From assembly GCA_040878325.1 (NCBI GenBank), contig JBBDMM010000009.1:1-64000 (forward strand): 64,000 nt of DNA. Direction: 5' to 3'. This document shows positions 6,001-9,000 of this stretch, piece after piece; position 1 is the stretch's first letter; each line of letters opens with the position of its first letter. The position numbers are program-made. This DNA comes from Acidimicrobiia bacterium. GTDB lineage: Bacteria > Actinomycetota > Acidimicrobiia > Spongiisociales > UBA11373.

Positions 6001-9000
6001 GCGAGTCCGGATTCCTGGTCTCCGGGGAGGACCCCGCGGTGTACGCCGCGGCGATCTCCAAGATCCTCGATGACCCAGAGGAGGCGGCACGCCTCTCTGC
6101 CGGAGCCATCGCCCACGCCGCCGGCTTCTCATGGGATTCCACCGCCGACCGCCTCTTGGAGCTCTACACCGGGATGGTGGAGGAGTAGCAGTCTCCAATC
6201 TCCAGCCTCCAGTCTCCAGCCACACATGTGTGTCGTAGCGGCCGGGACCGGATCCCATCCGCCCCGGAGATGACCGTCGCGTCTGGACTGGCGACTGGGG
6301 ACTGGCGACTCGTGAATGCAAAGGCCCAAGGAACCTCCACGGCGTTGTCCCCGCACTTCCCCAAACGAGGTCTTCGCCGCATCGGCACCTTGGGCCTTGC
6401 ACCGTCGAAACTACGGCCCGGTGTCGGCAAGGTCAAGCCTCTCGAGCTAGCCAGGTTTTCGCGACTTCGGCAATGCAACTGTCGATCCGAGCGGTCTTTC
6501 CACTCTGTCGATGCCCCGGCGATATGGTTCTCCACATATCCACCGCTATCCACAGGGGGTTGTGCACAAGCGGTGTCGACAAGTAGGGCTCATGCTTCTT
6601 TTTCGCGATCGAAGGCGAAAGGCGAAGGGCGAAAGGCGAAACCCAGCGAGACGTCTACGCGCGGACGGTTTAAGCGATCTTGCTGGAGGCTGGAGGCTCC
6701 CTCAGATCCCGAACATCAAGTCGCCCAACCGCACCGTGGAGACTTCGAATGTGTCGAGGTCGAGGCGGAGCGAGCCGAGCCACAGGCCTCTCATACCCTG
6801 GCCCCGGTTGGTGATGACCTTGAGCTGGCCATCATCGTGTTCGAGCACGCCGAGGCCCAGGCACCTGCCGCCTCCGTCCTGGAGTCCCACCAGAACGCCT
6901 TCGAGTCGAGCGAGATCGAGGCCGGCGGGGAGCGTTGGCGCGAAAACACTGTTGCGAACTCGCCACCTCTGCAGCGGCTCGGCAAAGGCAGTGGCGAATG
7001 CCTTGGCTCGCCATGTCCGGCGATCTTCGGGACTCGCGGGCCGCACGTCCGGGTCGACCGGGGCCACTTCGACCTCGGCGGTGAAGAAGCGGCGCAGCAT
7101 TCCGACGAGCGGCTCGATCTCGGCGCCGCGTTGGAATCCGATGACGACCTCGGGACGGCACAACTCCATCTTGTGGTACTTGAGGGTCTGGCCGACGACG
7201 CCGGACACCGTGCCGCTGGTGTCGACCACTACGAGGTCGGCGCGCTCGCGGGCCTCACCCACCAGCACCGCAGTCGCCACGACCTGCTGGAGGATCACTC
7301 GCTCGGGAAGGATCGCTCCGACGAACTGGAGGCGTTCGGCCTCGATCGTGCCATCGAGATCGACGGGACTCTCGATGACTGCCATCCCGATGCATCCGGG
7401 CGGCCCGATGGTGGACTGGTCGGTGTCGGCATCGACGAAAGCGACGGACCGGCCGGCGGCGAGGGCAGCCGCGATCAATCGCCGGGCGAAGGTGGTCTTG
7501 CCGGTGTCGGCGGACCCGATCAGCATCACGACCCCGCGGCGGCGCACCATGTCCTCGATGAGCCCTGAGTGGATGTCTTCTGTCACGGTTGCCCCGATCG
7601 GGTGTCTGATCGCTCCAGACCGTAGACCGTAGACGGCAGGTAGGGAGCGCGAAGTACTGTCCATCCGGTGACGCGCCCCATCTCGTTTCTCAGTGACTTC
7701 GGGCACGCCGACGAATTCGTCGGGGTGGTCCACGGCGTGATCCGCCGGATTTCGGTCGATGTCGAGGTCATCGATGTCACCCATGGCATTCCTCGGGGGA
7801 ATGTGCGCGCCGGGGCGCTTGCTCTCACCCGGGCGATTCAGTTCCTGCCGAACGGGGTGGTCCTCGCGGTAGTCGATCCGGGAGTGGGAGGTGAGCGGCG
7901 GGCGATCGCGGCCGAGACCGGGTGGGGGTACTTCGTGGGTCCAGACAATGGATTGCTGGCCCCGGCGGTGGCGATTGTCGGCGGCGCCACCCGCATCGTC
8001 TCGCTCGAGGCGGAGGAGTTCCGGCTGCCCCGCAGTGGACCCACTTTCGATGGGCGCGATGTGTTCGCCCCGGCGGCGGCAGTACTCGCATCGGGGGAGG
8101 CTGCTCTCATCGACCTGGGGCCCGAGGTGCCGCCCGGTTCATTGACACCGCTGCTGCTGCCCCTGGTGGAGCACATCGACGGCACGGTCGCCGGCGAGGT
8201 CTGGTGGGTCGATGGCTTCGGCAACGCCGAGACGAACGTCTCCCCGGAGGACCTCGAAGCCATCGGGGTGCACCCCGGGGACTCGATGACGATCCGCACC
8301 GGCACGCAGATTCACGAGGTGGAGTGGCGGGTCGGATATGGCAGTGGAGACGACCCCCTCGTCCACGTCGATTCATCCGGCATGATCGCGGTGGCCGTCC
8401 CGGGAGGGCGGGCAGATGAAGAGTTGGGGATGGCCGAAGGGACTGCCGTGGTATTCGGCCCCGTGGCCCCCAGTGGTCGGGGTACGAGGGTCGAGATAGA
8501 GCCACGAGTCAAGAGCCAAGACTGAAGAGTGAAGATTGGTGACTGGTGACTGGGCCGGCCGCCCGGTGACTGACTCAGACCGATTGGAGGCGGATGACGA
8601 ACGCCACCGCCGCTACTCCGAGCATCAGCAGGAGGAGGAGGATGGTGATGACGGTGGCCGGGCGCACCCCGTCGACGATAACCAGCGCGGGGCGGGTCGA
8701 GTATGAGTGACCTCACCTTCCTCACCCGGGACCGCTGCCTGCTTTGCGTGGAAGCCCTTCCCGTGGTCGAGGCGCAGGCGCGGCGTCGCCGCCACACCGT
8801 GCGGATCATCGACGTCGACAGCGATCCGACTCTGCGCGATCGCTATGGCGATCGGGTGCCGGTGGTCCTCCGCGACGGGTCGGAGGTACTGGCCGGGGTC
8901 TTCACACCCCGGGCAGTGCGACGCGCGCTGCGGTGAGCCTCGCGGTGCTCGGCGGCGATTGGCGATTGGCGATTGGCAGACGCGGAGACCGGCTCTCCTG

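Follow-up and report, generated by a model that had tools for sequence, protein, structure and literature searches.

Genomic context of the RNA locus

The window, i.e., the whole stretch of DNA analysed here, comprises 64,000 nucleotides from an Acidimicrobiia bacterium, genome G000 (genome codes beginning with G and contig codes beginning with C are labels of this analysis). Between an mshA-like glycosyltransferase gene, the true start of which is probably downstream of position 4863, and a Clp1-family P-loop kinase gene, the window carries a DnaA-box-like cluster, a sigma-A-type promoter, and a small structured RNA (Table 1). Although the first-pass annotation had regarded Clp1 as the conserved neighbour, this position was found to belong to mshA: the gene precedes the RNA in the same orientation at 49 of 67 order loci, at 27 of 29 loci of other orders, and at 9 of 26 loci of other classes. 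The adjacency of Clp1 itself was reproduced in 51 of the 67 order loci (47 convergent, and 4 upstream as in the window, where the unit is inverted), but the gene was beside the RNA in none of the 29 loci of other orders and none of the 8 oriented loci of other classes, and beyond synteny at the level of the order no support was found for a functional link. Because the box-promoter-RNA unit is inverted in the window, mshA is convergent with the RNA there. Inversion of the unit (window 6188-6702) relative to both genes was observed in G000, G100, G114, and G134; many relatives have a small gene between mshA and the unit that is absent at this locus, and short genome-specific repeats flank the unit.

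Table 1. Features of the RNA locus (window positions) and the two leading predicted targets (positions on other contigs of G000).
Feature	Position	Strand	Evidence or remark
mshA-like glycosyltransferase gene, conserved neighbour	4863..6188	+	TIGR03449, 421.7 bits, under the 462.5 cut-off
Small non-coding RNA, 83-nt rod	6318..6400	-	Fold, model match 6318-6402, covariation
G-rich pairing region	6349..6362	-	Invariant columns
7-nt seed within G-rich region, open apical loop	6356-6362	-	Opening cost 0.4 kcal/mol
-10 hexamer TAGTTT	6408..6413	-	Sequence, conserved
-35 hexamer TTGACC, 17-bp spacer	6431..6436	-	Sequence, conserved
Proximal CGCGAAAA element	6456..6463	-	27 bp above -35
DnaA-box-like cluster, five 9-mers	6528..6582	.	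Four with at most one mismatch
Box	6528-6536
Box, overlapping	6536-6544		2 mismatches
Box	6546-6554
Box	6560-6569		Near-palindrome
Box	6574-6582
Distal CGCGAAAA element	6600..6607	-	Typically 36-39 bp above the central box
Clp1-family P-loop kinase gene	6702..7784	-	PF16575, E 1.3e-29; neighbour in the order only
ssbB-like SSB-family gene, 105 aa	G000:C12:3346		Top predicted target
Putative secreted alpha/beta-hydrolase gene, 348 aa	G000:C18:112135		Hydrophobic N-terminus; second predicted target

Structure and identity of the RNA

The rod-shaped RNA that had been placed on the minus strand at about 6319-6399 was borne out by folding: the segment 6318-6400 displayed a minimum free energy of -50.5 kcal/mol (z -5.7), none of 200 shuffled sequences was equally stable, and the plus strand of the same locus folded less well (-38.7 kcal/mol). 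The 5' end probably lies at 6400-6402. Compensatory changes in the stem were likewise upheld, as two-sided changes occurred in 18 of 25 pairs among 64 distinct sequences and 91.9% of cells were paired against 37-51% in a slid-partner control, the alignment having been fitted to the covariance model. The promoter strand bears a single G-rich loop; opening of its seed is nearly free, in contrast to the 10.9 kcal/mol required for all 14 nt of the G-rich region, which entails melting of the top stem. The near-invariant segment described earlier held within the class as the 11-mer GGGGAAGTGCG, while in other classes only GGGGAAG was kept (24 of 26 loci). The sigma-A-type promoter, TTGACC-17-TAGTTT in the window, was also retained, a TTG-16/18-YAnnnT pattern being present in 65 of the 67 order loci examined, and the RNA would be transcribed from it. 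Such a combination of an own promoter with a conserved, covarying structure lacking an ORF is what is expected of a trans-acting sRNA. The CGCGAAAA element also occurs, in pairs of copies, at two other promoters on C18.

In agreement with the first-pass annotation, no Rfam family matching the RNA at the E-value level was found in the window or in the relatives' loci. Membership in the 6C family (RF01066) was rejected, given that its covariance model had no match in G000 and that C-rich apical loops are absent. SRP RNA, RNase P RNA, and tmRNA gave no model match at the locus, and each sits elsewhere in G000. 6S and Ms1 RNAs, with about 180-300 nt and a central bubble, do not fit a rod of 83 nt; no 6S match was detected in G000, and the sole weak Ms1 match lies elsewhere, below the cut-off. 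CsrA/Rsm decoy RNAs are characterized by several GGA loops and a CsrA gene, whereas the RNA has one loop only. A tblastn search of G000 with E. coli Hfq and CsrA, each as a single query, returned no match, and the HflX control was found. The literature searched, which was limited to articles outside subscription and without their supplements, contained no description of the RNA and no sRNA family with targets for Acidimicrobiia. Judged from its sequence, the RNA represents a hitherto undescribed sRNA family of uncultured actinobacteria that combines predicted targets with a phased array of DnaA boxes, in a phylum, Actinomycetota, in which few sRNA families with targets are known.

Phylogenetic range

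BLAST with the unit yielded matches in 105 of 151 order genomes, and a covariance model, first built from 29 sequences, detected the RNA in 140 of 150 order genomes, including 106 of the 109 good ones. Families f4 and f10, from which it had been reported missing, each showed a model match in 18 of 18 genomes. Nor was the family confined to the order as believed: it was present in 63 of 150 class genomes and, with the third-round model (E<=0.01), in 38 of 149 phylum genomes. These counts are not independent, because the genomes are related, and they take in the unpublished genomes G004, G016, G265, G281, G309, G347, and G402; remarks naming G347 below thus rest partly on an unpublished genome. 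The small RNA is real as a conserved structure and more widespread than first noted, the family spanning the class and the phylum.

The copy number was nearly always one, with two copies in one order genome. Among 26 loci of other classes, 23 had a TTG-TAnnnT promoter 30-185 nt upstream, and the hairpin there can therefore end a longer RNA. Full matches were obtained for at least 4 GTDB records, for which the class Acidimicrobiia is assumed; in a loose GTDB pattern scan, 4 of 80 tested loci among the matches listed were real. Among viral contigs, 3 matches covered the core only and none the full RNA, and the model found no RNA in G161, G169, G151, G156, G235, G190, G206, or G153.

DnaA-box cluster upstream of the promoter

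The actinobacterial DnaA box is given as TTGTCCACA in PMC4285127. The 9-mers at 6528 and 6546 recur at the dnaA promoter or in the dnaA-dnaN spacer of G000, and at least three boxes were found in 61 of the 67 order loci, so that the earlier report of a cluster away from the origin stands. It is not the strongest of the genome as had been stated; with the box consensus used here it ranks second, behind C10:157579, which precedes a sigma-70 gene. The whole window contained 12 box motifs versus 13.2 by chance, i.e., no excess, and only the clustering and conservation of the boxes are informative.

An oriC is marked by a pair of boxes, by trinucleotide repeats after it, and by an AT-rich tract for unwinding. 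The dnaA-dnaN spacer of G000 (C6:169213) carries an overlapping box pair and then trinucleotide repeats, and is the likely origin; the RNA locus shows no such signature and was rejected as oriC. Known clusters outside oriC include datA, DARS, and those of Bacillus and Streptomyces. The four to five TT(A/G)TCCACA-type boxes away from the origin resemble them, but those described here have no fixed chromosomal position (12, 15, 23, 35, and 49% of the chromosome from dnaA in five single-contig genomes, assuming circularity) and are phased to the sRNA promoter.

The distance from the boxes to the -35 hexamer, measurable in 58 of the 67 order loci, took values of 80, 91, 101-102, 110-111, 121, 124, 132-134, and 155 bp, corresponding to steps of about 10.5 bp (phase R 0.85, p 1.5e-4 for 8 cluster centres) in a non-random set made up of best hits and chosen f4 and f10 genomes. 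In a metagenome replicate (80 of 119 loci found), 60 distances were 114, 123, 131-135, 144, 148, and 156 bp, of which two (148) were out of phase and two (114) about 3 off. The stretch separating the boxes from the promoter shows little sequence conservation but is constrained in length, and conserved boxes at a constrained position are the sequence hallmark of a DnaA-regulated promoter. Since the boxes lie 80-155 bp above the -35 hexamer in steps of about 10.5 bp, the cluster is coupled to the RNA promoter. DnaA would bind there and, on this layout, has a good chance of acting on that promoter. The boxes are lacking at 4 of the 67 order loci, as they are at 26 of 28 loci from other orders; in two f15 genomes, a separate cluster is situated closer to the promoter. 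As the RNA also occurs without boxes, DnaA control would be an add-on to an older RNA, most likely acquired later in this order.

Clusters of similar layout were observed in G000 at C10:157579-157725, C12:33531-33553, and C6:221772-221802, next to a sigma-70 paralogue, a MerR-like regulator, and a crgA-like gene, respectively; together, the box clusters of G000 form a putative small DnaA regulon. At L195 and L196 (G239 and G157), a TGTGAC...GTCACA inverted repeat upstream of the RNA takes the place of the boxes found in the order, which suggests another regulator.

Predicted target mRNAs

The earlier annotation had assigned no function, and the complementary mRNA leaders described below are new. 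The sole other 12-nt complement of the loop in G000, at C12:3319, lies 13-27 nt before the start codon of the ssbB-like gene. Among 2134 predicted genes of G000 (crude gene calls of our own), this leader ranked first, with a duplex of -31.3 kcal/mol (mean -17.2, sd 3.3) and an unbroken 15 bp. The gene was matched in 140 of 150 order genomes, a few weak matches probably being the main ssb. Within the window of -40 to -4, a duplex of -22 kcal/mol or better was predicted for 27 of the 49 readable ssbB orthologues (50 given) and 12 of 22 hydrolase orthologues (23 given), against a background of 7/2133 G000 genes. For the second target, the alpha/beta-hydrolase assignment rests on leads only; the gene occurs in 23 of 81 genomes, follows a sigma-A-type promoter, and has the same C-rich element as the ssbB-like leader. 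Thus two unrelated genes with different promoter types have this element in common, and, where present, it ends at a median of 13 nt before the start codon. In G021 and G079, it is absent at ssbB and present at the hydrolase gene.

When the seed was fixed, the native 3' flank ranked top among 30 permutations in 17 of 59 leaders, against an expectation of about 2, 10 of the 69 aligned leaders having been left out for want of a placed promoter. An element-SD-ATG pattern, derived from leaders already seen, matched 44 times in 150 genomes versus 6 times in a reversed control, and 20 of the 44 were ssbB-like and hydrolase genes; a version without the start codon gave 82 matches versus 83, i.e., no excess. 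An accessible, conserved seed is accordingly accompanied by conserved complementary leader sites, though not universally: 15 of 49 order ssbB leaders fell short of -20 kcal/mol despite the near-universal RNA, and with the loop invariant, other targets or a protein must therefore hold it. The seed is invariant in the class, and the leader base facing the invariant U of the RNA varies; hence there is no strict compensatory change. In other orders, where leaders are longer, 1 of 19 passed -22 kcal/mol in the -40 to -4 window; of the ssbB-like leaders there (20 given), 17 had a placed promoter, and in 13 of these the seed complement followed it. The PafBC-type ssbB-like leaders of G347 and G386, from other classes, lack the C-rich element. 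A C-rich seed complement precedes ssbA in G347, G391, G326, and G395, i.e., weakly, in 4 of 10 genomes of other classes; it may act in cis only, and a switch of the family between ssbA and ssbB may have taken place across the phylum.

The ssbB-like promoter agreed with the PafBC consensus tTGTCRgtg-8nt-TannnT, as provided in PMC5656591, strictly in 33 and in relaxed form in 48 of 49 order loci. In G000, this motif occurred 26 times at spacer 10 as opposed to 0, 2, 3, and 5 times at other spacers; of these 26 promoters, only the ssbB-like one has a seed match behind it. G000 also possesses a PafB/PafC-like WYL pair, and PafBC would bind here as in the PafBC/RecA-NDp regulon described in PMC5656591 and PMC6789036. 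The 26 promoters, which outline a clear PafBC-type regulon in G000, are mostly leaderless and are followed by recA-, ruvC-, recO-, gyrB-, adnAB-, and HNH-like genes, the names being recognized from the sequences without a domain scan.

Several further candidates were considered. A 51-aa ORF with a C-rich leader (G000:C6:81020-81228) lies behind a palindrome that we take to resemble a LexA box; as a target, the gene (C6:81073) was rejected, its leader not being conserved in 6 other loci. In a membrane-protein family for which there is a TpcC lead and which also came up in G133 and G130, 3 of 30 leaders reached -20 kcal/mol or better; a merR-like site falls in the promoter spacer. The mreB, rpsF, and comEA-like sites sit at or before the likely start site. 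A pattern search of five f1 genomes gave no further shared target among 30 of 47 matches. C-rich seed complements were also noted at C6:136107 (5' end of the rpsF-ssb-rpsR operon; recurring in G021) and C6:135209 (before rpsR). In G035 (C45:3527, locus L480), a 58-aa DUF4244 pilin-like gene has a perfect leader element that its G000 homologue lacks; this candidate target was found in one genome only.

Proposed mechanism and alternative explanations

In the proposed mechanism, the sigma-A-type promoter would produce a trans-acting regulatory sRNA whose open G-rich loop pairs, probably without Hfq, with the C-rich element just 5' of the Shine-Dalgarno (SD) sequence, and this pairing could spread into the weak top stem. 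In the mRNA, the C-rich element would fold onto the ribosome-binding site (RBS), so that pairing with the sRNA frees the RBS and turns translation on; in this order, the helically phased DnaA-box array would tie the RNA level to DnaA. We assign the whole account, namely, an Hfq-free pairing sRNA that is more likely activating and has acquired DnaA control, a probability of roughly 0.47. Its component that the RNA pairs with the leaders, whatever the sign of the effect, is probable from the conserved complementarity.

Energetically, about -31 kcal/mol gained by full pairing stands against 10.9 kcal/mol for melting the top stem. In most leaders, folding predicts that the site pairs with the SD of the same mRNA. 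Because the C-rich element folds onto the RBS, pairing would most likely free it, and, supposing that pairing occurs in vivo, activation is the likelier outcome. Upon blocking of the site in silico, the median opening cost of the RBS decreased from 7.1 to 2.7 kcal/mol in ssbB leaders (29 of 34 dropping by more than 1) and from 8.9 to 5.0 kcal/mol in hydrolase leaders (12 of 14), a drop that arises partly by construction given that leaders at -20 kcal/mol or better had been selected and about three start codons were probably mis-picked. In longer G000 folds, the SD remained largely paired after blocking. In the spacer test, 20 of 34 ssbB leaders were more stable than shuffled ones, with 13 against 20 in the comparison with random sequence; the hydrolase leaders, with 13/17 and 14/17, were the sole positive. 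Since an SD-like seed complements any anti-SD arm, the match may partly be a by-product of cis hairpins.

The same pairing could instead be repressive, the duplex and rod abutting the SD and blocking 30S loading or triggering decay, so that ssbB and the hydrolase are kept low. The 30S footprint extends from about -20 to +19, and the site, ending a median of 13 nt before the start, lies against the SD within it; the persistent SD pairing in the longer G000 folds points the same way, as does the mainly negative action of 6C RNA described in PMC6486639. In most leaders, however, the site is the very arm by which the SD is already paired, and the last 6 nt ahead of the start codon stabilize this hairpin more than shuffled versions do in 13 of 17 hydrolase leaders, which fits a default-off mRNA; repression is hence considered unlikely. 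That the C-rich leaders are translational brakes in cis only, and the loop an SD-like decoy for a protein or the ribosome, would explain why the loop is invariant even where the ssbB leader has lost its match and why element-bearing leaders exist in G235 and G190, two genomes without an RNA match; the basal stem, a similar form of which ends two other putative ncRNAs on C18, also hints at a shared protein. Pairing of the loop with the 16S 3' end is nevertheless weak (-8.1 kcal/mol versus about -31 for the ssbB leader), no CsrA match was obtained with the one E. coli query, and the extension of pairing past the seed recurs in two unrelated genes, which together make a cis-only role distinctly improbable.

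The remaining explanations do without the leaders. The box cluster might be a stand-alone DnaA site (a titration or reactivation locus or a second origin) to which the RNA is incidental or an unwinding aid; only one other cluster of the genome is as dense or denser, and the spacer is AT-rich in a few relatives. Against this very improbable reading speak the normal-origin signature at the dnaA-dnaN spacer, the variable distance from dnaA (12-49% of the chromosome), the phasing to the promoter, and the persistence of the RNA without boxes at 4/67 order loci and 26/28 loci of other orders. If the Clp1 kinase formed an RNA repair module with the RNA as its substrate or partner, their adjacency in 51/67 order loci would be accounted for, but this reading is scarcely compatible with the convergent arrangement at 47 of them and with the absence of the gene beside the RNA in other orders (29 loci) and classes (8). 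Finally, the locus could represent a small ORF, a DNA cruciform, or a terminator, as the rod could terminate mshA and a U-rich tract lies near the 3' end, though in only 12 of 65 loci; lengths varying from 72 to 91 nt in single-base steps, the promoter retained in 65/67, the invariant loop, and the covarying stems render this explanation almost negligible.

Returning to the activating sRNA under DnaA control, a two-input gate built on an ancient actinobacterial riboregulator can be envisaged, in which PafBC would turn on ssbB transcription upon DNA damage and the message would remain locked until opened by the SD-mimicking loop of the DnaA-controlled RNA. Though this gate is doubtful, if true, the replication initiator would license a DNA-damage output via a chaperone-free RNA, the mirror image of 6C. 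A loop matching the start of a DNA-damage message would link DNA replication to DNA repair. The RNA, near-universal in the order, known from several classes, and equipped with concrete target predictions and phased DnaA boxes, offers a link, open to direct testing, from the initiation of replication to the PafBC response to DNA damage.

Comparison with known regulatory RNAs

According to PMC6486639, 6C is a small structured actinobacterial sRNA whose exposed loops form G-C pairs with several 5' UTRs without known chaperones, and its targets touch DNA metabolism. The present RNA is likewise small, highly structured, and actinobacterial, with predicted chaperone-free G-C loop pairing to 5' UTRs and with predicted targets that likewise extend to DNA metabolism. 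Unlike 6C, in which C-rich loops on several hairpins face G-rich RBSs, it has one rod with one G-rich loop facing C-rich leader elements, and its predicted binding site is the anti-SD arm instead of the SD. On this analogy, the RNA is best read as a polarity-reversed counterpart of 6C, suggesting that chaperone-free regulation in high-GC bacteria draws on G-rich as well as C-rich loops.

The rpoS leader folds onto its RBS and DsrA pairs with the blocking arm with the need for Hfq, and TfoR is an anti-antisense activator of the same type acting on tfoX (PMC3675490 and PMC3903286, respectively). The leaders here are similarly predicted to fold onto the RBS and to be paired by the sRNA at the blocking arm; in contrast to the DsrA system, no Hfq match was found in G000, and the leaders measure about 25-45 nt. 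RocR of Legionella, stabilized by RocC, silences several mRNAs for DNA uptake and recombination (PMC6744872); here, the likeness is confined to a lead on competence (ssbB plus the DUF4244 pilin-like gene, in one genome).

Other observations in G000

At C18:34609-35350 (locus L656), two putative ncRNAs, about 240-270 nt long and highly structured, lie in tandem, each behind a promoter with two CGCGAAA elements and ending in a stem like the basal stem of the RNA (R3 model, E 5e-4 and 3e-3). They belong to no Rfam family and are possibly the Ms1/6S-type RNAs of this group. In addition, ARAGORN called a tRNA-SeC at C4:40768.
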